In this document: positions 1,183 to 64,000 of the stretch, in pieces | Layout of the letters: each line of letters starts with the position of its first letter | Position numbering within the stretch: position 1 is the stretch's first letter | Assembly (NCBI GenBank): GCA_040387755.1 | Contig: JAZKDB010000001.1 | Span: 823,141-887,140, forward strand | Direction of reading: 5' to 3' | Source: Bacteroidota bacterium | Lineage (GTDB): Bacteria > Bacteroidota > Bacteroidia > Chitinophagales > Chitinophagaceae | Length of the DNA stretch: 64,000 nt | Translations under genes and position numbers: made by a program | The notes under the pieces: model-generated | What the model was told of the DNA's origin: nothing | The model's database searches: none | Seen by the model: only the letters and a program-made list of their open reading frames with translations

Positions 1183-2979
1183 CTAATAATCGATACTCAT
1201 TTTCAAAGCATCTTTAAGCTGATGTAGCATTGGGTTTTTTTCTGCCATTGCTGCAAAAATTTCAGCCTTGCTTAATGCTCTTTCTCCGGGTTCATTTTCT
1301 GTAAGGACAAATGAATTACTGATACGAACCAACAAACCTGTTTCCTTCTTAATTAATTCCTGTATAGCACCCCGCTCAGACTGGGCATAGCTATCGGTAA
1401 TGCTATTAGGCGAGGTTAAATGTAGTGAGCCTTCTTCGGGCATCTCCAGCTTTACTGTTTCAAGTGCATTGTATAGAATACTTTTATTCTCTTCTTTAAG
1501 TTGTAATTTGTAATTATTGAAAATGCGCTCCACCATTTCTATTGAGAGCTCACTCATTAACATCTTTTGAGACTCAATTGCAAGGTTAGAGGTGTTACTG
1601 AGCATGTTTTTGGATACTCTCCTTTGCACTGAGCCAGTCTCGTTTTGTCCAAAAGGAGAAGGCTTTTTTGGCGGCTCCAGACCTTTATCCAATGTGCTTT
1701 CTGAGCTTTTATTGCTTTCTGTAACAACTGTCTCCAGAATTACCGGATTGGCATTGCTTTCTGTTTTGTTGAGCTGCGGTAGAGGTCTTTCTGTTTCGGA
1801 TTTTTGGGCCGTTTGAGCATCGTTTATGATGTCAGGCTTTGGACTATCGTTTTTTTTTTCGGTGCCAGAATCTATTTTAGTTGCCTGCAATACATAACAA
1901 AGTCTGATTAAACAGAGCTCTGTATGCAATCTTCTGTTGTTGGCATTTTTATATTCCAATTCACTTTCATTAACCACATTTAATGCAGATAAAATGAATG
2001 AGGGAGGTGCCTGTGCCGCTTTTTCGTGATAAATTGGTTTGTGATTATTGGGTACATCCAATAGTTTGGCCATTCTGGCATCTTTACAAAGCAACAGATT
2101 TCTGAAATGTTCAGAAAACCCATTCAAAATAACATCTCCCTCAAAGCCTCTGTCCAAAACATCATCCAGTAATAACAAGGTTCCTGCCACATCACCAGCC
2201 AAAATGATATCAGTGATTTTAAAATAAAAATCTGCATCTAATTGATTGAGATGCTCCATTGTTGCGGCATAAGTTAGCTGGCCATTGGTAAAGCTGGATA
2301 TTCTGTCCAACATTGACAAGGCATCACGCATACAACCTTCACTTTTTTGCGCAATTACGTGCAGCGCAGCCTCTTCGGCATTAATATGCTCTTTGCCGGT
2401 TATCTGAGCCAGATGCTGTACCGTGTCATTAGTGGTTATTCTTTTGAAATCAAATATCTGACATCGGCTAAGAATAGTAGGTAGTATTTTATGTTTTTCT
2501 GTTGTGGCCAAGATAAAAATGGCGTAGGATGGTGGTTCTTCAAGAGTTTTGAGAAATGCATTGAATGCAGCAGTACTCAACATGTGAACCTCATCAATGA
2601 TATAGACTTTGTATTTGCCTTGCTGTGGAGCAAAACGTACTTGCTCTGTCAGGTTTCGGATATCATCAACCGAATTATTAGAAGCAGCATCTAATTCGAA
2701 AATATTGAACGAAGTGTTGTTGTTAAAAGACTGGCAACTGTTACAAGTGCCACAAGCCTCCATCTCTTCTGTAGGGTGTTCACAATTCAGCGTTCGGGCT
2801 AAAATCCTTGCACAGGTTGTTTTTCCCACCCCTCTTGGTCCGCAAAACAAAAAAGCATGGGCAAGATGATTATTGCGCATGGCATTGCGTAGCGTAGTGG
2901 TAATATGCTCCTGACCCACTACTGTGTCAAAGGTTTGGGGTCTGTATTTTCTTGCTGAAACGATATATTGGTCTGACAT
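1183..2979 (-). CDS. dnaX: DNA polymerase III subunit gamma/tau
   Basis: ARKYRPQTF, Walker A GPRGVGKTT, Cys cluster CEHP...CGTCNSC, Walker B IIDEVHML, NAFLKTLEEPP, SRC motif. Confidence 0.98.
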   Translation of the reverse strand: MSDQYIVSARKYRPQTFDTVVGQEHITTTLRNAMRNNHLAHAFLFCGPRGVGKTTCARILARTLNCEHPTEEMEACGTCNSCQSFNNNTSFNIFELDAASNNSVDDIRNLTEQVRFAPQQGKYKVYIIDEVHMLSTAAFNAFLKTLEEPPSYAIFILATTEKHKILPTILSRCQIFDFKRITTNDTVQHLAQITGKEHINAEEAALHVIAQKSEGCMRDALSMLDRISSFTNGQLTYAATMEHLNQLDADFYFKITDIILAGDVAGTLLLLDDVLDRGFEGDVILNGFSEHFRNLLLCKDARMAKLLDVPNNHKPIYHEKAAQAPPSFILSALNVVNESELEYKNANNRRLHTELCLIRLCYVLQATKIDSGTEKKNDSPKPDIINDAQTAQKSETERPLPQLNKTESNANPVILETVVTESNKSSESTLDKGLEPPKKPSPFGQNETGSVQRRVSKNMLSNTSNLAIESQKMLMSELSIEMVERIFNNYKLQLKEENKSILYNALETVKLEMPEEGSLHLTSPNSITDSYAQSERGAIQELIKKETGLLVRISNSFVLTENEPGERALSKAEIFAAMAEKNPMLHQLKDALKMSIDY

Positions 2980-3031
2980 TTTTCTTCTGGACAGCTTGTC
3001 TTGTACTAAAGGTTAAAGGTAATTGTTGCGA

Positions 3032-3697
3032 TTAATAAAACAAGTACATTAGTCTTAACGCAAAAACATTATTAAATTGTTGTGATCTTCCGAATTCTGC
3101 ATCTACATCATCCCTGACAGAAAGCATTGAATATTGAAAACGCAATCCGGCAAATAAGCCTTTGTAGACGTGTAATTGGCCCGATAAGACCAGATTGATA
3201 TCCATTTTTTTGAAAGGATATTTATCAGGGTCATATTTTATACTCGGATTGTTGACATTAATTACCTCTTTGCTATTAATCAACTGAGCATAGGATAGAC
3301 CTGCTCCGAAATGATTTTTTTTCTGATCGAAAAAGTTAATTTGAACAGGTATTTCGGCATAATTAAGCGTAATATTCTGTTTGGTAATTACGGCGATTTG
3401 ACTTGTGGTGGGTTGGGCACCATTTGATTTTGCCCCTTTTTGAGCGTACAATATTTCTAAACTGGCCGACATTTGGGGCAATAAGTGTGCATAAACTACA
3501 ACGCCTGTACTAAGGCCAATATTATGGTATCCCTTATAGCTGTCTCCATCTACCTGAGTAAAATTGGCTCCACCAATAAATCCACCCACAAAGGTTTTGG
3601 GCTCTTCAACATAATAGCTTTTAGGGTTTTGAGCAAATAACAGCAGAGGGCTAAAGGCAAAAATTGACAGGGTAAATAATAAACTTAGAAATCTCAT
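3032..3697 (-). CDS. Outer-membrane beta-barrel protein (porin/PorT-like, OMP_b-brl_2 type), paralog 2
   Basis: Signal peptide, GGANFTQV, LEILYAQKG, LNYAEIPV, alternating beta pattern, aromatic C-terminus (YLFY). Confidence 0.8.
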   Translation of the reverse strand: MRFLSLLFTLSIFAFSPLLLFAQNPKSYYVEEPKTFVGGFIGGANFTQVDGDSYKGYHNIGLSTGVVVYAHLLPQMSASLEILYAQKGAKSNGAQPTTSQIAVITKQNITLNYAEIPVQINFFDQKKNHFGAGLSYAQLINSKEVINVNNPSIKYDPDKYPFKKMDINLVLSGQLHVYKGLFAGLRFQYSMLSVRDDVDAEFGRSQQFNNVFALRLMYLFY

Positions 3698-3713
3698 TTG
3701 TGCATTTTGGCTT

Positions 3714-4385
3714 TTAGAACAGGTACATAACTCTTAGTACCCACATGTTATTGTATTGCTTGCCTCTGGCAAACTCAGAATCAACTTTTTCGCGAATAGG
3801 CAAAATGGAATATTGAAAACGCAGATTGGCATATAATCCTTTAATCAAATGAAGATTCGCTGAGGCGATAAAATTGATATCTCTTTTTTTGAAAGGATAA
3901 TTATTCTGATCATACGGACGGACTGGACTTGTTACGATTTTTTCGTCAGAACTGATTAACTGAGCATATGACAATCCCACTCCAACATGGCTTTTGCGTT
4001 TGTCATACACATTCAATAAGATGGGTATTTCAGCATAATTAAAATTAATGTTTTGATTGACAATAGTAAATGAATCACTACTGGAGTTTTGTCTGAAATT
4101 GGAACGGGCACCTTTTTGCGAAAATAAAAGTTCCATACTTAAAGTGAGATCCTGAGCAATTCTTGCATACAAAATGGCGCCGGCATTGACACCTGTTTTA
4201 AAATAACCAGCATATTTATCTCCATCTACCTGACAAAAACTGGCACCTGCCACTAGCCCGCCACTAAACAATTTGGGCTCTTCTACATAGTAGCTGGAAG
4301 GGTTTTGTGCCTGAGCACGAAAAAAAATGCTGCTTGATAAAAGGATAACGCTTAAAATTGTACCTAATTTTCTACTTTTATTCAT
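3714..4385 (-). CDS. Outer-membrane beta-barrel protein (porin/PorT-like), paralog 1
   Basis: Start moved from 4433 to ATG 4385 (MNKSRKLGTIL.. signal peptide). MELLFSQKG, FNYAEIPI, C-terminal YLF. Clearly homologous to 3032-3697. Confidence 0.8.
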   Translation of the reverse strand: MNKSRKLGTILSVILLSSSIFFRAQAQNPSSYYVEEPKLFSGGLVAGASFCQVDGDKYAGYFKTGVNAGAILYARIAQDLTLSMELLFSQKGARSNFRQNSSSDSFTIVNQNINFNYAEIPILLNVYDKRKSHVGVGLSYAQLISSDEKIVTSPVRPYDQNNYPFKKRDINFIASANLHLIKGLYANLRFQYSILPIREKVDSEFARGKQYNNMWVLRVMYLF

Positions 4386-4407
4386 CGGTGATAAAGTAAC
4401 CAGTATA

Positions 4408-55978: not shown

Positions 55979-57046
55979 ATGCAATCACTCTTCGAAAAAG
56001 TAAAACAGATGGGACACGAGCAAGTTGTGTTTTGTCATGACCCAAATTCAGGACTTAACGCAATTATTGCTATTCATAATACTACTCTTGGTCCTGCCTT
56101 AGGAGGAACTCGTGTGTGGAATTATAATAGTGATGAAGATGCGATAATTGATGCACTTCGCCTTAGCCGTGGTATGACATATAAAAATGCAATCAGCGGA
56201 TTGAATATCGGTGGTGGTAAAGCAGTGATTATTGCTGACCCTTCTATGAAATCTGAATTGCTTTGGCGCAGATATGGAAAATTTGTAAATAGCCTTAACG
56301 GAAAATACATTACTGCAGAAGACGTTAATACCAATACTTCCGATATGGAATTCGTTTCTTTGGAAACTAAATTTGTAACCGGGGTTCCGGAATATGCCGG
56401 AGGAAGTGGTGATCCATCGCCATTTACTGCTACAGGTGTTTACATGGGCATGAAAGCTTCTGCAAAAAAATCATATGGTAGTGACAGCCTTGCCGGTAAA
56501 AAGGTTTTGGTACAGGGTGCTGGTCACGTTGGACAATACCTTATTGGTCATTTGGTTGCAGAAGGGGCAAAGGTTATGGTTTCTGATATTGATCCTGCTA
56601 AAATTAAATCTGCAGTAGAAAAATATAGGAATATTGAAGTAGTAGATAATGCTGGTATTTTTGATTTGGATATGGATATTTATGCTCCATGTGCATTAGG
56701 AGCTACAGTTAATGACGATAGCATCAATCGCCTCAAATGTTCAATTATTGCGGGAGCTGCTAATAATCAGCTGGCAGACGAAAATGTGCACGGACCAATG
56801 CTGGTCAAAAAAGGTATTTTGTATGGTCCTGACTTTTTGATTAATGCCGGAGGAGTGATTAATGTTGCTGCTGAGCTGGAAGGTTACAATCTTGGAAAAG
56901 TAAATAGTGCTGTTGAAAAAATTTACGCTCGCACTTTAGAAATATATGATTTGGCTGAAAAAGAAAATACCCACACCCAAGCAGCTGCCATGATAATGGC
57001 TCAAAAGCGCTTGGACGATATTGCTCATCTTAAGACGAGAATGTAA
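55979..57046 (+). CDS. Glu/Leu/Phe/Val dehydrogenase (leucine/phenylalanine dehydrogenase-like)
   Basis: GPALGGTR, GMTYKNA, GGGKAVI, YITAEDV, GDPSPFTA, PCALG, AGAANNQL. Confidence 0.93.
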   Translation: MQSLFEKVKQMGHEQVVFCHDPNSGLNAIIAIHNTTLGPALGGTRVWNYNSDEDAIIDALRLSRGMTYKNAISGLNIGGGKAVIIADPSMKSELLWRRYGKFVNSLNGKYITAEDVNTNTSDMEFVSLETKFVTGVPEYAGGSGDPSPFTATGVYMGMKASAKKSYGSDSLAGKKVLVQGAGHVGQYLIGHLVAEGAKVMVSDIDPAKIKSAVEKYRNIEVVDNAGIFDLDMDIYAPCALGATVNDDSINRLKCSIIAGAANNQLADENVHGPMLVKKGILYGPDFLINAGGVINVAAELEGYNLGKVNSAVEKIYARTLEIYDLAEKENTHTQAAAMIMAQKRLDDIAHLKTRM

Positions 57047-57064: not shown

Positions 57065-57096
57065 AAAGACTGCTCTAGAAATGAGCAGTCTTTTTT
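57065..57096 (+). terminator. Intrinsic terminator after the dehydrogenase
   Basis: AAAGACTGCTC / GAGCAGTCTTT followed by a T run. Confidence 0.85.
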
Positions 57097-57299: not shown

Positions 57300-58109
57300 A
57301 TGGACATTAATAGTAAAACAGGCAATCCAATTGTGCGGCTGCGAGCATTCAGAGCCGTAGATGACCCTGTGTCGTGTCAGTTGTTTCTGGAAGGGCACGA
57401 ACATGTTTTGACAAGTATTGGTGTGACAAAGGTTACCTCTTCAAAGGATGAATGGACCAGAAACCCGGCAGCCTTTGTATTAATTGTCGAGTCTTTGGAT
57501 AAATCTAAAGTATATGGGGGCGCTCGTATTCATGTATCCGGAGGTACTGAACCCCTACCCATTGAGCAGGCAACTGGAATGATGGACGATAATGTTTTTG
57601 ATTTGGTTTGGCACTATGCACAAAATGGCACCGGAGAGGGTTGTGGTTTATGGAATTCAAGAGAAATCTCGGGTTATGGTATTGGTAGTATTTTTCTTAC
57701 ACGTGCAGCCATTGCTATTGCACCCCAGATAGGTATACAGTCACTTTTTGCTTTGTGTGCACCTTACACAGTAAAGCTAACAGAAAGCGTAGGATACCAA
57801 TTAGAAACCAGTATTGGCAATAATGGTACCTTTTACTATCCCAAACTTGATTTGGTAGCTACTACAATGATTCTTAAGGATTTGGATACATTAAGTACTG
57901 CAAGTGAAGAAAATCGAATTGCAATAATGGATTTGAGAAAAAATCAAACTTGTAATAGGGTAGAAGTGCTTCGCAATAAAGAGATAGAGATTCATTATGA
58001 TATTAAGATTCCAAATCTTGAGAAATGGGATTTGAAGGAAATAATAAGAAATGTAAAGCAATGGCCTGTAGGCTCTAAATTTTCAGATTCACCATTAAAT
58101 ATTTTATAA
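57300..58109 (+). CDS. Hypothetical protein, probable GNAT/acyl-synthase-like fold
   Basis: RAFRA..FLEGH..VL, VYGGARIH, LPIE, EGCGLWN, GIGSIFLTRAA, LFALCAPYT..L..VGY pattern recalls LuxI/FeeM-like acyltransferases; fold assignment is by eye. Confidence 0.6.
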   Translation: MDINSKTGNPIVRLRAFRAVDDPVSCQLFLEGHEHVLTSIGVTKVTSSKDEWTRNPAAFVLIVESLDKSKVYGGARIHVSGGTEPLPIEQATGMMDDNVFDLVWHYAQNGTGEGCGLWNSREISGYGIGSIFLTRAAIAIAPQIGIQSLFALCAPYTVKLTESVGYQLETSIGNNGTFYYPKLDLVATTMILKDLDTLSTASEENRIAIMDLRKNQTCNRVEVLRNKEIEIHYDIKIPNLEKWDLKEIIRNVKQWPVGSKFSDSPLNIL

Positions 58110-58135
58110 TAATTTCATTTTCTTAGTCAATCTAT

Positions 58136-60478
58136 TTGATTACTCTTGCATTTACCAATATGAAAAACCACATAGCCGATATTCAATCTAGAAACGAATC
58201 TTTAAATTTTATTCACTCCCCTGTTTTTTTTAGAATCTCAAATTCAGACGATAAAAATGCTTTAGAAAATTTGCTGGAAAATGGGAAAGTGCTTTTTGTT
58301 TATAATAAAATTGAGGAACAGCTAAGAGAGTTGATTAAATGCAGAAATGTAGGCATTCGCTTAAATGAAGTTGAATATAAATCTTTGACAGAAAAACATC
58401 TCAATGGTTCTTCATTTGATGAATATGGTGTTTGGGTTTTTTATCCTTGGAGCGGCAGATTAATTCACATGTTAGATGAAGGTGAATTTATTGAAGTACG
58501 AACAAATCGTAATCAATATAAGATTACACTGAAGGAACGAGATATTTTAGCAACAAAAAAAATCGGAATTATTGGTCTTTCTGTTGGTCAATCTGTGGCA
58601 TTGACATTGGCTATGGAAAGAGGATGTGGTGAATTAGTTTTGGCAGACTTTGATTATTTGGAGTTAAGTAATTTAAACCGAATTCGAAGTGGTATTCAAA
58701 ATCTTGGAATAAATAAAGTTGTTTTAGCTGCTAGAGAAATAGCGGAAATTGATCCTTTTTTGAAAGTAACCTGTTACACTGAAGGAATCAAAGAAGATAA
58801 CATCAATAGTTTTTTTACATTAGATAGAAAGTTGGATTTACTTGTAGAGGAATGTGATGGGTTGGATATGAAGATTATTGCTCGTTTAAAAGCAAGAGAG
58901 TTAGGTATTCCTGTTTTAATGGATACGAGTGATAGAGGTATGTTAGATGTTGAAAGGTTTGACCTTAATTTAAATAGACCTATCCTGCATGGACTTATTG
59001 AGAATATTAACTTAAACGATATCAGAGAAATAAGCGATGAAGATAAAGTTCCCATAATACTCCAATTGTTAGGTCTTGAAAATATTTCAATTCGCGGAAA
59101 GGTTTCCATGATTGAAGTGAATCAAAGCATAAATACTTGGCCTCAACTTGCAAGTTCTGTCACATTAGGAGGTGCATTAGTTACAGATATAAGTAGAAGA
59201 ATACTCCTAAATCAGTTTTCTGATTCAGGACGATACTATATAGATTTTGAGGAATTAGTAAAAAATACTAATGACAAAGAAAGTAAAGAAGTCCTGACAA
59301 GAAAAGTCCCATTCAGTCCAATGACTTTAGATGAAATGGAAATGTTGGCAAATCAATACGTCTCTCCAAAATCTAAATCTATATTTCTCGATAACCACAC
59401 TATATCAAGTTTAGTAAATGCTGCTTGCGCAGCACCCTCCACTGGTAACGATCAACCCTGGAAATGGCTTTACAAGGATAGTACACTATTCTTATTTCAC
59501 GATGAATACAGATCTAGTTCATTTGGAGATTTTCAGAAGATAGCAAGTTTTATCACCTTAGGGTCTGCCTATGAAAATCTTTACATTCATGCAAAAAGCA
59601 AGTTTGGTATTGAGCCTGAGTATGATTTTTTTCCAATCAGTTCAAATCAAAGACTAGTTGCCGCCATTAATTTTAAAGCCAGTGAGGAAAATTGTGACCA
59701 ACTTCTTGATATCAAAAAACTTGATGCTGCAATTTTAAAAAGGCATACCAATAGAAATTCATCAATTAAAGTGAATATAGAGCAAAGTCAACTTGACAAA
59801 TTAAAGTACTATGCAGAGTCAATTGATGGAGCCAAATTGCAATGGATTACAGACGAGAAGGATTTTACTAAACTAGGTAAAATTATTGGAGCTTGTGACC
59901 GTATGCGCATTTTCAATGACGAAGGCCATATTGATTTTGCTCAAAGAGAGATGCGATGGACAGAAGAAGAGGCAGAAGAATCTAGGGATGGTATTTTTAT
60001 AAAAACACTTGGACTGAATGAGTCTCAACTAGCAGCTCTGAAAGTAATCAAAAACCACGATGTAATTAAGGGGCTCAGAGAATTAGGAGGTGGTAAAGCT
60101 TTCGAAGTATTGGCGAATCGAAGCTTAGTTAATGCATCTGCTATGTGTTATATAACTTTGCCTGAGTATAGTTTAAAAAGTTTTTTTGAAGGAGGGCGTT
60201 CAATGGAACGTTTTTGGCTGTTGGCAACAGATTTGGGATTTGCAATACACCCATTAATTTCACCACTTTATTTATTCCCAAGAGTTTTACATGCTAATGC
60301 AGAAGGGATTTCAGACAAAGATGCGGAAGAATTAATTGAATTGAGAAAAGAATTCAAAAAAATATTTGATGCTAAAGATGATGTTGCTGAAGTATTTATC
60401 ACTAAAATTGCAGTTGCTGAAGAACCGATCTTAAAAACTTTGAGATTACCAATCGAAGAGGTGTTATTTTTTAATTAG
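58136..60478 (+). CDS. ThiF/E1-like adenylation domain fused to Acg-like nitroreductase (Rv1355c-like family)
   Basis: WVFYPWSG, FIEVRTNRN, IGIIGLSVG (58574), ADFDYLELSNLNR, VEECD, DVERFD, NTWPQLASSV, APSTGNDQPW (59432), RHTNR (59741). Alternative start ATG 58160. Confidence 0.88.
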   Translation: MITLAFTNMKNHIADIQSRNESLNFIHSPVFFRISNSDDKNALENLLENGKVLFVYNKIEEQLRELIKCRNVGIRLNEVEYKSLTEKHLNGSSFDEYGVWVFYPWSGRLIHMLDEGEFIEVRTNRNQYKITLKERDILATKKIGIIGLSVGQSVALTLAMERGCGELVLADFDYLELSNLNRIRSGIQNLGINKVVLAAREIAEIDPFLKVTCYTEGIKEDNINSFFTLDRKLDLLVEECDGLDMKIIARLKARELGIPVLMDTSDRGMLDVERFDLNLNRPILHGLIENINLNDIREISDEDKVPIILQLLGLENISIRGKVSMIEVNQSINTWPQLASSVTLGGALVTDISRRILLNQFSDSGRYYIDFEELVKNTNDKESKEVLTRKVPFSPMTLDEMEMLANQYVSPKSKSIFLDNHTISSLVNAACAAPSTGNDQPWKWLYKDSTLFLFHDEYRSSSFGDFQKIASFITLGSAYENLYIHAKSKFGIEPEYDFFPISSNQRLVAAINFKASEENCDQLLDIKKLDAAILKRHTNRNSSIKVNIEQSQLDKLKYYAESIDGAKLQWITDEKDFTKLGKIIGACDRMRIFNDEGHIDFAQREMRWTEEEAEESRDGIFIKTLGLNESQLAALKVIKNHDVIKGLRELGGGKAFEVLANRSLVNASAMCYITLPEYSLKSFFEGGRSMERFWLLATDLGFAIHPLISPLYLFPRVLHANAEGISDKDAEELIELRKEFKKIFDAKDDVAEVFITKIAVAEEPILKTLRLPIEEVLFFN

Positions 60479-60544
60479 TCAACAAAGTGGGTGTTTTATA
60501 TTTGAGTGCAAAGAAAACCGAACTTAGTTAATACAGTATATTAA

Positions 60545-62701
60545 ATGAAAAAAATAATTTACGCGTTAATTCTATTTCAAATATTTATCAGTGGTTCTGT
60601 TTTTTCGCAAAAGACATTAATTTTTAAAGGGCAAAACGTAATTATTGGTCAGCAAATTGCAATATTTGAAGACACCTCCAATCAGCTTGATATTGAAGCA
60701 ATTCGAAATATTTCTGGTTTTGTAACATCAACCGGCCAAACCCCGAATTTACAATTAAGTAAATCAGATTTTTGGCTTAAATTCAATATTAAAAATGCCA
60801 CTCAAAATGAGCTGCTTTTACTTGAAATAGAATATCCAACCCTACAGCTTTGTGAATTTTATTATCCAGAAAATGGAAAATATAGGGTAGTGACAGCTAG
60901 TGACCGAACTAATTTCAAAGATAGAAAGTATAAACATCAAAATTTTATTTTTGATATCCACTTACCTCAAGATAGCGTTGCAACCTTCTTCATTAGAGTA
61001 AGAAGTAGCGAGCAGATGGTGTTACCATTAATTTTGGGATCGCCCCAAAAAATCAGTGAGTCCTTACTTACCAAGGACTTACTTTGGGGTATATTTGTAG
61101 GTATATTAATTGTAATGATATTGTACAATTTTTTTGTATTTATGTCTACTAAGGATATTGATTATCTTTATTACGTACTCTACATTACTTTCATAGGTTT
61201 AACACAAACCTCCTTATCTGGCTATACCTATCGATACATTTTTTATGACACACCAGAGTTGTTTCATAAAGGGATAATTATCTTCCCTGCATTGGCAGGT
61301 ATTTTTGCCATATTTTTTATCAAAAACTTTCTTCATACCAAAGACAGTGCACCACGCCTTGATAAACTTTTATCTGTTGGTTTAGTACTCTATTCAATTG
61401 CAATTATATTTCGTATTTCAGGCTATGATCATGCGGCCTATAGAATGATTGATATATCTGCACTTTTCTCTACTATTATTACCTATATAGTATCAATCAA
61501 AAGAGTTTATAACGGATATCGACCTGCAAAGTTTTTTTTGGTAGCCTGGACATTGTTTATGACAGGAATAATTTTGTTTGTGTTAAGAAATCTGGGTATT
61601 CTTGAACATAACAATTTTACAAATAACACCATGCAATTGGGAGTTTCGCTTGAGGTTACATTGCTTTCGATAGCGTTGGCAGATAAGTTTAATATCCTTA
61701 AGAAGGAAAAAGAACAATCGCAATTGGCTACATTGAATGCAATCAGAGAAAATGAAAAAATTGTACGCGAGCAAAATGTGATGCTGGAAAAAATGGTAGC
61801 CGAAAGAACCGCAGAGTTAGAGGAAACAAACGAAGATTTAAGCGTCACTTTAGAAGATTTGAAACAAGCCCAATCACAACTTGTTGAAGCAGAGAAAATG
61901 GCCTCCTTGGGTCAATTAACTGCAGGTATTGCTCATGAAATTAATAACCCTATCAATTTCGTTACAAGCAATGTGGCTCCCCTTAAGCGAGATGTCGGAA
62001 TGGTATTTGATACGATAGAATTTATCGAAACCATAAGTTTTGAAGATATCTCGGATGAGCAAAAACGAAAGAAAATAGAAGCATTTAAGGAGGACTTAGA
62101 CTATGATTACCTTAAGATTGAAATTAATCACCTTTTGAATGGAATTTATGAAGGATCATCACGTACAGCCGAAATAGTTAAAGGGCTTAGGATTTTCTCT
62201 CGTGTAGATGAGAACGACCTGAAGAAGGCAGATATCAATGAAGGTCTTGATTCTACGCTGATTATAGTAAATAATTTGCTGAACAGCACAATAAAAATTA
62301 TTAAAGAGTACACTGATCCGATGCCACTCATTGAGTGTTATCCGGGTAAGCTAAATCAAGTCTTTTTAAATATTATGAGTAATGCTATCCATGCTATTCG
62401 CAAAAAGCATGGCGAAAGTGGAAACGGAATTATTACTATCCGCACCAAGGCTTTGGAAAAGTACATAACCGTAGAGATACTGGATAATGGGGTAGGGATG
62501 GATGAAGTAACTCAGCATAAAATTTATGAGCCATTTTTTACAACCAAAGATGTAGGCGAAGGAACAGGTTTGGGAATGTCTATTGTGTACAATACAATCA
62601 AAAAACACAACGGTACTATCAAATTGGTTTCAAAACTAGGAGAAGGAACTTCATTTTTAATACAATTACCCATTATCTTCGACGCAGAAAATATAATATG
62701 A
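60545..62701 (+). CDS. 7TM-DISM sensor histidine kinase (7TMR-DISMED2 + 7TM + HisKA + HATPase)
   Basis: FEDTSNQL..PNLQLSKSDFWLKF periplasmic domain; GILIVMILYNFF..YLYY; seven TMs; LSIALADK coiled coil; AGIAHEINNP H-box; LNQVFLNIMSNA, DNGVG, FFTTKDVGEGTGLG. Confidence 0.93.
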   Translation: MKKIIYALILFQIFISGSVFSQKTLIFKGQNVIIGQQIAIFEDTSNQLDIEAIRNISGFVTSTGQTPNLQLSKSDFWLKFNIKNATQNELLLLEIEYPTLQLCEFYYPENGKYRVVTASDRTNFKDRKYKHQNFIFDIHLPQDSVATFFIRVRSSEQMVLPLILGSPQKISESLLTKDLLWGIFVGILIVMILYNFFVFMSTKDIDYLYYVLYITFIGLTQTSLSGYTYRYIFYDTPELFHKGIIIFPALAGIFAIFFIKNFLHTKDSAPRLDKLLSVGLVLYSIAIIFRISGYDHAAYRMIDISALFSTIITYIVSIKRVYNGYRPAKFFLVAWTLFMTGIILFVLRNLGILEHNNFTNNTMQLGVSLEVTLLSIALADKFNILKKEKEQSQLATLNAIRENEKIVREQNVMLEKMVAERTAELEETNEDLSVTLEDLKQAQSQLVEAEKMASLGQLTAGIAHEINNPINFVTSNVAPLKRDVGMVFDTIEFIETISFEDISDEQKRKKIEAFKEDLDYDYLKIEINHLLNGIYEGSSRTAEIVKGLRIFSRVDENDLKKADINEGLDSTLIIVNNLLNSTIKIIKEYTDPMPLIECYPGKLNQVFLNIMSNAIHAIRKKHGESGNGIITIRTKALEKYITVEILDNGVGMDEVTQHKIYEPFFTTKDVGEGTGLGMSIVYNTIKKHNGTIKLVSKLGEGTSFLIQLPIIFDAENII

Positions 62702-62733
62702 TTTAGTTATTTTGTGCAACAAACTATCCAATT

Positions 62734-63813
62734 TTGAAAGTAAAAATTCTATACATTGATGATGAACCAAACAACCTAATCAGTTTTAAGGCTGCTTTTC
62801 GGATTCACTTTGATATCTTCACCGCCACTGTTCCTACCGAAGCGGTAATGCATATGATTGCCCATCCTGATATAAAGATTATTTTTTGCGATCAAAGGAT
62901 GCCAGATATTTCCGGCGTTGACTTATTGGAACAACTAAAAAGCCTTTTCCCGCTTCCTGTAAGAATTATGATAACTGGTTATGCTGATATTGACTCTGTA
63001 ATTGGCGCAATTAACAAAGGAAGTATTTTTCAGTACATTAAAAAACCCTGGAAGGAAGATGATGTTTTGTTTGCAATAGAAGAAGCATTGAAATTTTACA
63101 ATAACAGTTCAATGCTTACACTGAAGAATCAGGAACTTAAAAATGCCTATAGTGAATTGGATAAGTTTGCTTACAGTGTTAGTCATGATATCAGAGGTCC
63201 TTTGGCAGGCATGTTAACAGGTATAGATTATCTTCAACATTCTAATGATATTGACGAAATCAAAGATTTAATGACGACAATGAAGAAATCATTGTTGCAA
63301 TTAGACGATTATATTATTGCCATGCATCAATATTATAATCAGCAAAAAGGTCAGGTTTCTATTTTTCCAATTGATTTTTCAAAATTGGTACAGGAAAATA
63401 AAAATATATATTCCATTTTTGCAAATGCACAGAAAATAGACTTTGAATCACATGTTAGTCAAACGGAAGCGTTTGATAGCGACCTTATTTCTATAAAGCT
63501 GATTATCAATAATTTATTATCAAATGCTTTTAAGTACCAAAGAGTAGAGGAGGAGAATAAGAAAGTTAAATTAATAATTGACGTAAAAAATGGCATTGCC
63601 ACAATTACTGTTGAAGACAACGGAATTGGAATGAAAGAAGATGATATTGACAAGATTTTCGACCTTCATTTCAGATCTGCATCTCAAAAAGTTGGTTTTG
63701 GCTTTGGGCTTTACAACTTAAAGGGAGCCTTGGTTAAACTAAGTGGACAAATTGACGTGCAATCCAAAATTGGTATTGGATCAACATTTAAAGTAACCCT
63801 ATCAAGTTTGTAA
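62734..63813 (+). CDS. Hybrid receiver + histidine kinase (REC-HisKA-HATPase), no sensor domain
   Basis: ILYIDDE, FCDQRMP, ITGY, KKPW; H-box SVSHDIRGPL; NLLSNAFKY, EDNGIG, GFGLY. Confidence 0.93.
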   Translation: MKVKILYIDDEPNNLISFKAAFRIHFDIFTATVPTEAVMHMIAHPDIKIIFCDQRMPDISGVDLLEQLKSLFPLPVRIMITGYADIDSVIGAINKGSIFQYIKKPWKEDDVLFAIEEALKFYNNSSMLTLKNQELKNAYSELDKFAYSVSHDIRGPLAGMLTGIDYLQHSNDIDEIKDLMTTMKKSLLQLDDYIIAMHQYYNQQKGQVSIFPIDFSKLVQENKNIYSIFANAQKIDFESHVSQTEAFDSDLISIKLIINNLLSNAFKYQRVEEENKKVKLIIDVKNGIATITVEDNGIGMKEDDIDKIFDLHFRSASQKVGFGFGLYNLKGALVKLSGQIDVQSKIGIGSTFKVTLSSL

Positions 63814-63818
63814 ATTTA

Positions 63819-64000
63819 CTAGGAAAGTAGTTTTTGTCTTAAGAGAAACTCTAATTGCTCATTTGAGGTACTAAGATTTTCATTCATTTCCTTAATCTTA
63901 AGTTGCTCCTTGAAGGCTTCATGTGCACGATTAATAGTCATCTCAAGTTCATTTTCATCCCATGGTTTGGTTAGGTAATGGAAAATCTTTCCCTTATTAA
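63819..64000 (-). CDS. Response regulator receiver protein, C-terminal part only (runs off the right edge)
   Basis: Not in ORF track. Minus strand reads NKGKIFHYLTKPWDENELEMTINRAHEAFKEQLKIKEMNENLSTSNEQLEFLLRQKLLS*, TAG at 63821-63819. Confidence 0.88.
   Translation of the reverse strand, partial: NKGKIFHYLTKPWDENELEMTINRAHEAFKEQLKIKEMNENLSTSNEQLEFLLRQKLLS

Follow-up and report, generated by a model that had tools for sequence, protein, structure and literature searches.

Here we describe a compact gene module, composed of a predicted N-acyl amino acid synthase, a predicted oxazolone synthetase and a membrane-bound sensor kinase with its relay, at the end of a 64,000-nucleotide stretch of Bacteroidota DNA (positions 823,141 to 887,140 of contig JAZKDB010000001.1; hereafter, the window), which is part of a Rurimicrobium (Chitinophagaceae) genome of 3.34 Mb. 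On the forward strand the module consists of an acyltransferase gene (gene 1, trzA; 57300-58109, open reading frame (ORF) of 269 aa), a gene for a fusion of ThiF and a flavin-dependent oxidase (ThiF-FDO; gene 2, trzS; 58136-60478, 780 aa, TTG start), a 7TMR-DISM sensor histidine kinase that is our candidate receptor (gene 3, HK1; 60545-62701, 718 aa) and a soluble hybrid of REC, HisKA and HATPase domains (gene 4, HK2; 62734-63813, 359 aa). The C-terminal part of a convergent single-domain receiver follows on the reverse strand (63819-64000), its gene extending 283 nt past the window end. Across Bacteroidota, these enzymes and this relay are clustered far beyond chance, and comparative genomics strongly supports the view that they form a functional unit. 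By a small degree, we favor the interpretation that the module would specify a self-made lipoamino-acid signal together with its own receptor, built like phcBSRQ of Ralstonia. The original prediction, made from the DNA letters, had proposed that the enzymes make an acylated molecule that the relay detects; the functional linkage in that proposal is now upheld, and detection by the kinase is something we still infer.

To assess linkage, 124 related loci were assembled. Besides the locus of the window, they comprise 26 found by sampling Chitinophagaceae genera evenly, 80 in named genomes, 14 found by sampling the phylum as a whole (five Bacteroidota family codes) and three Flavobacteriales-type loci from metagenomes. 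The 80 named-genome loci are the best matches to a search with an eight-sequence alignment (A2); they come mostly from Sphingobacteriaceae and are all close relatives. In every one of the 95 loci with at least 7 kb on either side of the acyltransferase gene, a 7TMR-DISM kinase lies within 9 kb of that gene, and beside it in the loci inspected. The REC-kinase hybrid is present in 94 of these 95, the last carrying a REC-PAS-kinase instead, and a 154-aa single receiver in 85, as a rule transcribed divergently from the first gene for biosynthesis. The set of genes is constant although their order and orientation are not: the trzS-trzA order is commoner than the trzA-trzS order of the window, and one locus has the pair inverted. 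Altogether, the module is spread over five Bacteroidota family codes and metagenome-assembled genomes of Flavobacteriales, representing at least three orders.

Co-occurrence leads to the same picture. In an even draw of 151 Chitinophagaceae genera, the acyltransferase was found in 53 genomes, always as a single copy, and a full-length kinase orthologue (at least 479 bits) in exactly the same 53; both were lacking in 97 and neither was ever found alone, one fragmentary assembly with a 400-bit kinase-domain piece having been set aside from the count. In the other genomes, the best kinase match reached at most 294 bits and covered the kinase core only. The corresponding Fisher test gives p = 7e-42, a value that is not corrected for phylogeny. 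One genome (G139) retains the parts although they are split between contigs. A contig of another genome (G051 contig C1, L166 4880-7033) carries an extra full-length kinase orthologue without an adjoining acyltransferase, REC-kinase or single REC gene, a possible 'solo' receptor and the sole such case among the 53 module-bearing genomes. In the Flavobacteriales-type loci (L158-L162), a REC-PAS-kinase of 506-510 aa replaces the 360-aa hybrid and a peptidase M1 gene flanks the module; phenylacetate-catabolism genes (PaaA/PaaC and a ferredoxin reductase) follow the module in three of the four places among these loci, the contig of L162 ending after the reductase.

A second line of evidence comes from the tailoring gene, which is swappable and whose exchange is followed by the sensor half of the kinase. 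Among the 124 loci, the tailoring enzyme is a ThiF-FDO fusion in 52 (and in three more that are cut at contig ends), a ThiF protein alone, of 355-389 aa, in 22 (with three more), a class I S-adenosylmethionine (SAM) methyltransferase of about 254 aa, weakly similar to fatty-acid and malonyl-ACP O-methyltransferases, in 41, and an ICMT/PEMT-type membrane carboxyl methyltransferase in two; one locus has no tailoring gene. Each of the four classes is drawn from a family whose members act on carboxylates, which points to a shared product logic, the common product probably being an N-acyl amino acid whose carboxylate is masked or capped. The ThiF-only variants (L053-L058 and 16 further loci) indicate several independent losses of the FDO half, at a cost of 4-5 further changes on the sensor tree, and in at least two ThiF-only genomes (G028, G123) no FDO of the same family was found elsewhere in the genome. 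As the R540A variant of TrzS has shown that ThiF alone yields a saturated cyclized product (PMC12856293), ThiF-only strains such as these two would, by analogy, stop at the saturated azlactone.

Gene trees were built with IQ-TREE and scored by the number of changes of tailoring class that each requires. The sensor-half tree needs three changes, the minimum possible, compared with 12 for TrzA, 16 for the kinase domain and 13 for the REC-kinase hybrid, and in these last three trees 5-10 changes are forced by well-supported branches. DISMED2 alone and the 7TM block alone each require three changes, and the methyltransferase-type sensors fall on one side of a branch of the sensor tree with a Shimodaira-Hasegawa-like approximate likelihood ratio test (SH-aLRT) support of 100. 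Within the ThiF class as well, sensor identity tracks the identity of the ThiF domain best (rho 0.63) and that of TrzA least.

The exchange can be seen clearly within the genus. The window and its closest relatives share their flanks (a TPR protein, a 314-aa protein and a Leu/Phe/Val-type dehydrogenase), and the middle gene is ThiF-FDO in the window but a class I SAM methyltransferase in the congener R. arvi (L063/L143 9791-10552; L060-L062), so that the two congeners differ in predicted signal class. Identity between the window and R. arvi is 75.5% for TrzA, 73.7% for the kinase domain and 63% for the REC-kinase hybrid, as opposed to 32.9% for the sensor half. Along TrzA, residues 1-210 are 73-100% identical, after which identity falls to 53% and then 34%; along HK1, identity is 13-50% over residues 1-360 and 50-96% over residues 361-718. 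The break points of this mosaic lie near residue 210 of TrzA and residue 360 of the kinase. The tract between them (about 57930-61624, forward strand), which takes in the C-terminal tail of TrzA, the tailoring gene and the kinase's sensor half, has a lower GC content and differs in class from R. arvi while the sequences on either side are alike. The highest identity of the window sensor, 59%, is to ThiF-type modules from other lineages. In the literature searched, an obligate coupling of such enzymes to a 7TMR-DISM relay, with cassette-wise switching of tailoring enzyme and sensor, appears undescribed.

The domain assignments of the original prediction were all correct as judged by Pfam, NCBIfam and fold matching, and its guesses that gene 1 is acyl-synthase-like and that gene 2 adenylates and then oxidizes its substrate agree with the TrzA/TrzS family match. 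Gene 1 matched no family in Pfam (E <= 0.01) or NCBIfam, and a phmmer search against PDB sequences returned only noise. Its AlphaFold (AF2) model is nevertheless of high predicted quality (predicted local distance difference test score, pLDDT, 92.6), and the top Foldseek matches in the PDB are BjaI (5W8E and related entries), MesI, RpaI and FeeM (2G0B), with target-normalized TM-scores (TMt) of 0.63-0.80 at 10-17% identity. FeeM (2G0B) and BjaI (5W8C) are also the structures named in the context of TyzA and OxzA (PMC10404671). An hhalign comparison of the gene-1 family profile (A1) with a 252-aa gene that adjoins an Rv1355c-family gene on a Rhodococcus qingshengii plasmid gave a probability of 90% and an E-value of 1.4e-6 over 164 columns, a remote homology in a comparison that did not extend to Rv1356c itself. 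By sequence profile and modeled fold, gene 1 is, thus, a TrzA/OxzA-type N-acyl amino acid synthase with a FeeM/LuxI-like GNAT fold and predicted catalytic activity. We rejected the possibility that it is a LuxI homologue (Pfam Autoind_synth), as it matched no such sequence model and the likeness is in fold only. The gene-1 family is large, with 2323 matches in a word-indexed search forming 485 clusters at 50% identity. Fusions within the TrzA-like family include an N-terminal TIR domain (P0138, 570 aa), leucine-rich repeats (P0126, 662 aa) and ThiF (P0223, 632 aa); the TIR and leucine-rich repeat fusions are unexpected for a lipid-signal synthase.

The family of gene 2 is more readily recognized. 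Its product scored 806.1 bits against the NCBIfam model NF005901 'Rv1355c family' (cut-off 476; residues 23-777), matched ThiF in Pfam and gave a partial match to NF047509 (Acg family), and its matches among PDB sequences were TcdA, UBA5 and the Acg nitroreductase 2YMV. Within the gene, a ThiF-type ATP-dependent cyclase domain (about 58433-59260, forward strand) is followed by an Acg-type FDO domain, an FMN oxidoreductase (about 59387-60478, forward strand). Identity to an Rv1355c-family protein of a Rhodococcus plasmid is 33% over 695 aa (E 4e-112). In a set of 56 sequences (52 from Bacteroidota and four actinobacterial), residues conserved in at least 97% include G144/G147-G151, D171, D173, N179, N181, R182, K194 and C240-D241 in the ThiF domain, and A433-P434, N438, Q440, W442, R536 and R540 in the FDO domain. 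D241 aligns to D202 of a Mycolicibacterium TY66 homologue, with an offset that fits D217, the ThiF adenylation aspartate of TrzS-Msmeg, an enzyme whose FMN-site residues include R540 and Q651. From these matches, gene 2 is a TrzS/OxzB-like oxazolone synthetase of predicted activity. A role in thiamin or molybdopterin synthesis (ThiF/MoeB) was discarded, because all such NCBIfam models scored far under their cut-offs. We likewise set aside a reading of ThiF plus nitroreductase as a pathway for ribosomally synthesized and post-translationally modified peptides (RiPPs) or thiazole/oxazole-modified microcins (TOMMs): the module and more than 120 related loci have no YcaO and no precursor peptide, and the partner enzyme is an acyltransferase.

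Genes 1 and 2 are, therefore, best described by family membership as a new member of a known biosynthetic pair, the Bacteroidota version of TrzA/TrzS. In a recent study of Mycobacterium tuberculosis, M. smegmatis and Rhodococcus jostii RHA1, Rv1356c (TrzA) was found to N-acylate tryptophan from acyl-CoA, and Rv1355c (TrzS) to act in an obligate order in vitro, its ThiF domain cyclizing the N-acyl amino acid with ATP before the FDO domain desaturates it to the N-acyl tryptazolone (Kleetz et al., J Biol Chem 2025; PMC12856293). In both cases, a FeeM/LuxI-fold N-acyltransferase and a ThiF-FDO fusion form a two-gene unit with signaling genes adjoining. The window proteins are, however, only 32-34% identical to the actinobacterial homologues examined, with the acyltransferases akin at profile level only; the M. 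tuberculosis pair has cyclic di-GMP enzymes (GGDEF/EAL) as neighbors where the Bacteroidota pair invariably has a 7TMR-DISM relay; and in Bacteroidota a lone ThiF protein or a methyltransferase can stand in for the fusion. Related enzymes had been described before in Pseudoalteromonas rubra (OxzAB; bioRxiv 2020.06.11.147165) and in M. tuberculosis (TyzACB; PMC10404671), and they share with the window pair the three activities of acyl transfer, ThiF cyclization and FDO desaturation as well as the predicted folds. They differ in that the ThiF domains of OxzB and TyzB fall in subcluster 2 of the published network and that of TrzS in subcluster 1, in that the ThiF and FDO of the Tyz pathway are separate proteins, and in that no dedicated sensor has been reported beside them. 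Because OxzAB (2020-21), TyzACB (2023) and TrzAS (2025) have already been characterized, the enzyme chemistry is not novel and the likely product class can be named by analogy as an N-acyl oxazolone.

Outside Bacteroidota, pairing with a sensor is not universal. A GGDEF gene adjoins the enzyme pair on Rhodococcus plasmids (plasmid tblastn), and cyclic di-GMP genes lie near trzAS in M. tuberculosis (PMC12856293), in keeping with the statement of the original prediction that Rv1355c sits beside a cyclic di-GMP gene. On Mycobacterium and Mycolicibacterium plasmids, the neighbors are P450 and TetR genes, and on a high-GC metagenome contig an ABC transporter, with no annotated sensor nearby in either case. 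The suggestion that the sensor is swapped between histidine kinase and GGDEF types consequently holds for Rhodococcus and M. tuberculosis and not for the mycobacterial plasmids or the high-GC contig. Similarly, an enzyme pair usually lacking a sensor, which had been named as an outcome that would speak against the proposal, is not what is seen in Bacteroidota (95 of 95 loci have one), and is seen in part beyond the phylum. A search with an alignment of high-GC homologues (A3) returned 11 proteins among the matches listed, none from a named actinobacterium. On a plasmid of Streptomyces sp. NBC_01431 (L142 6164-9078), a 622-aa 'ThiF family adenylyltransferase' has a C-terminal half that is 48% identical to the ThiF half of the window protein, and is closer to it than the mycobacterial homologues are; it carries about 280 unassigned residues at its N-terminus, lacks an FDO, and has a KAS III gene downstream. 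Similar ThiF-only matches came from three more actinomycete plasmids.

Gene 3 encodes, in order, a signal peptide, 7TMR-DISMED2, 7TMR-DISM_7TM, HisKA and HATPase_c, and, as judged from its sequence, it meets the definition of a 7TMR-DISM receptor kinase, in which DISMED2 and then the 7TM block are fused to a transmitter. On the forward strand, the periplasmic DISMED2 (about 60647-61036) matches Pfam with E 3.6e-32 (PF07696, 111.6 bits, cut-off 22), the 7TM block (about 61076-61687) with E 2e-52 (PF07695, 178.6 bits, cut-off 29), and the HATPase_c of the HisKA and HATPase_c region (about 61907-62671) with E 2.3e-21 (76.7 bits); the HisKA match is weak, and an H-box, AHEINNP, is present. Gene 4 contains Response_reg (residues 5-115), HisKA and HATPase_c (250-356) and no DNA-binding domain. 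The convergent receiver, complete in the contig, is a single receiver of 154 aa (L002 8960-9424, reverse strand; Response_reg 2.5e-20) with a short C-terminal helix, and its REC domain is paralogous to that of gene 4. In the loci of one genus (g179; L145, L149, L151 and L152, about 2800-4400), a REC-PglZ protein of PorX-like architecture is encoded two genes upstream of the module, and could be a lineage-specific output of the relay (four of four genomes of that genus).

As for mechanism, gene 1 would N-acylate an amino acid in an acyl-CoA-dependent reaction, and the ThiF domain of gene 2 would adenylate the free carboxylate and cyclize the molecule to a 5(4H)-oxazolone, whose ring the FMN oxidase domain would desaturate. 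In the source organism the product would then be an N-acyl oxazolone, a neutral, lipophilic and slowly hydrolyzing molecule. We infer that the sensor half (DISMED2 and 7TM) of the putatively co-transcribed kinase recognizes this product and that phosphate may pass from the kinase to two paralogous receivers, the REC-kinase hybrid and the 154-aa single receiver; sensing could be cell-to-cell or autocrine. As no DNA-binding domain is encoded in the cassette, the output of the relay would lie elsewhere. Exchange of the sensor half along with the capping enzyme would generate different signal-receptor classes, even within one genus.

Similar in construction is phcBSRQ of Ralstonia, in which one operon encodes a signal methyltransferase, a sensor kinase, a REC-kinase that lacks a DNA-binding domain and a single REC, and whose signals, methyl 3-hydroxymyristate or methyl 3-hydroxypalmitate, are neutral and carboxyl-capped, with signal and receptor types that diversify between strains (PMC8578825). 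The module has a matching parts list, gene 4 corresponding to PhcR and the 154-aa receiver to PhcQ in architecture only, following that paper's description. There are also clear differences: in Ralstonia the signal is an ester of a fatty acid and not derived from an N-acyl amino acid, PhcS is called only a sensor histidine kinase in PMC8578825 and not a 7TMR-DISM protein, the tailoring enzyme of the window is ThiF-FDO, although close relatives use a SAM methyltransferase, and the module shows no equivalent of PhcA, the LysR regulator that is the output of the Phc system. By this analogy the module is Phc-like in its working at most, and we do not claim it as a Phc member. N-acyl alanine methyl esters (NAMEs) of Roseovarius tolerans, from a different phylum, are structural analogues of N-acyl homoserine lactones (AHLs), with no known receptor and no action through AHL receptors (PMC11580390), and their biosynthetic genes are not known to be linked to the TrzA-like family.

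With regard to sensor architecture, the kinase resembles RetS and LadS of Pseudomonas aeruginosa in fusing DISMED2 and a 7TM block to a kinase core. Those two, however, are hybrid kinases that belong to the Gac network and lack a cognate biosynthetic gene, whereas the window kinase has no receiver of its own and is always accompanied by a synthase. A parallel in gene arrangement is found in LuxM/LuxN and CqsA/CqsS of Vibrio, in which a synthase gene adjoins a multi-pass membrane kinase that binds a lipophilic signal in its transmembrane region. These Vibrio pairs differ from the module in their unrelated synthase families, in other sensor domains and in their known LuxU/LuxO output.

Several observations weigh against a signal-and-receptor interpretation. 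The DISMED2 domain is thought to bind other ligands, namely calcium in LadS, and has a proposed carbohydrate-binding fold. Domain scans revealed no DNA-binding domain or output regulator in the cassette, which, like the lack of a RiPP precursor in the module, is as the original prediction had stated. In the A-X-kinase order, the tailoring gene and the sensor half are adjacent, such that their co-inheritance could be partly mechanical: because only the conserved trzA and the kinase domain can serve as recombination arms, a diverged middle would be transferred in one piece even if matching were not selected for. Of all parts, the sensor half also evolves fastest (median identity of 32% even within the ThiF class), and it tracks TrzA with a rho of only 0.32, though TrzA should set the acyl and amino-acid parts of the ligand. 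In mycobacteria and Rhodococcus, tryptazolones are mostly cell-associated and not secreted (PMC12856293), and oxazolones added to five bacteria whose oxzAB had been expressed caused no phenotype (bioRxiv 2020.06.11.147165). The tie between kinase and product is, moreover, drawn from comparative genomics.

What, then, are the alternatives? One is that the relay senses another cue, such as the state of the envelope, a carbohydrate, an ion or a neighbor's signal, and that the enzymes are its regulated output or a co-regulated effector, the lipid acting in stress, in the membrane or as an antimicrobial rather than as the ligand. This alternative fits the linkage and co-occurrence data equally well. 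It also accords with the induction of oxazolone production by antibiotics in Proteobacteria and the tie of the tyz locus to oxidative stress (PMC12856293; bioRxiv 2020.06.11.147165), with the weak antimicrobial activity that the literature ascribes to N-acyl tyrosine derivatives and NAMEs, and with pairs outside Bacteroidota that have no kinase and lie beside ABC transporter or P450/TetR genes. We nonetheless regard it as rather unlikely, since the cassette has no DNA-binding output by which the relay could control the enzyme genes, and since it leaves unexplained why the sensor half, and not the kinase or the receivers, tracks the tailoring class with zero mismatches. That adjacency has no functional meaning at all, the biosynthetic pair having landed by chance at a two-component cluster, might be entertained given the many 7TMR-DISM kinases in each Bacteroidota genome, of which we saw many weaker paralogues. 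It is effectively refuted by the comparative data: the kinase stays near the acyltransferase in 95 of 95 loci despite rearrangements, co-occurrence over the 151 genera is perfect (p = 7e-42, uncorrected), and the parts persist together across at least three orders.

Another alternative is that the product is an activated or neutralized lipoamino-acid intermediate that is put onto or into an envelope component, with the 7TM kinase monitoring the envelope in a private, non-diffusible feedback. Oxazolones (azlactones) are, after all, chemically activated carboxyl derivatives, the products are mainly cell-associated in actinobacteria (PMC12856293), one tailoring variant is an integral-membrane ICMT/PEMT-type methyltransferase, and a strict one-to-one ratio of synthase to receptor, with a single solo kinase among 53 genomes, suits a private circuit. 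Yet the cassette lacks a conserved gene for a transferase or an acceptor, methyl esters donate acyl groups poorly, and class switching between congeners resembles the pherotype diversification of diffusible-signal systems; we consider a feedback of this kind improbable. A self-made lipoamino-acid signal with its own receptor, thus, remains the interpretation towards which we incline, if only slightly.

To our knowledge, dedicated autoinducer systems have not been established in Bacteroidota, and we know of ligands for only a minority of 7TMR-DISM receptors; our literature search for 7TMR-DISM proteins with quorum sensing in Bacteroidetes found none. The module is found in roughly one in three Chitinophagaceae genera and in many Sphingobacteriaceae, as well as in some Flavobacteriales and members of other lineages. 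It is, therefore, tempting to speculate, quite tentatively and short of leaning towards it, that environmental Bacteroidota carry a widespread and polymorphic form of chemical communication, with carboxyl-capped N-acyl amino acids (oxazolones, saturated azlactones or methyl esters) as autoinducers, 7TMR-DISM kinases as receptors, a Phc-like relay, and exchangeable cassettes of tailoring enzyme and sensor half. If this were true, congeners might use different 'dialects', the window Rurimicrobium being of an oxazolone type and R. arvi of a methyl-ester type, and the predicted difference between their modules would offer a natural contrast within one genus. It would also provide the oxazolone lipids of mycobacteria and Proteobacteria with their first physiological role and first receptor, and would add a candidate ligand class for 7TMR-DISM receptors and a candidate dedicated signaling system for Bacteroidota. 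The role of oxazolones has been called 'a major unresolved question', with signaling speculated from the cyclic di-GMP genes near M. tuberculosis trzAS (PMC12856293), and the authors of the oxazolone papers raise signaling as a possible role (PMC12856293; bioRxiv 2020.06.11.147165). What the module brings to this question is a concrete receptor candidate, a membrane kinase that is never phyletically separated from the synthase and whose sensor half changes with the capping enzyme.

In the window itself, ORF and hairpin analysis reproduced the layout that had been predicted, with four co-oriented genes separated in order by 26, 66 and 32 nt, a convergent receiver ORF that ends 5 nt from the stop of gene 4, and an intrinsic-terminator-like hairpin upstream (57065-57093, forward strand; an 11-bp stem with five G-C pairs, then a T-run). 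This hairpin ends the Leu/Phe/Val-type dehydrogenase gene and sets it apart from the module. The predicted AT-richness of the block is real and modest, at 34.1% GC for the module versus 38.1% for the rest of the window; by part, GC is 33.6% in trzS, 32.1% in the sensor, 38.6% in trzA and 36.2% in the kinase domain. A sigma-70 promoter scan of the region gave only shuffle-level signal, with a model that is ill-suited to Bacteroidota promoters. For the upstream dehydrogenase (55979-57046), the best model was ScyB tryptophan dehydrogenase, at 404 bits, under the cut-off of 600. We dropped a functional tie to this dehydrogenase, as the synteny is confined to the Rurimicrobium lineage and the terminator lies between, and also a link to paa genes, none of which lie within 19 kb upstream of the module in the window. 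The contig continues for 1.5 kb past the window end, and beyond the convergent receiver it encodes a 123-aa CheY-like receiver and a 113-aa protein without a Pfam match (contig positions 887645-888376; L002 9645-10376). The same pair also trails the module in another locus (L105), and many loci have a small additional receiver gene after that of the REC-kinase.

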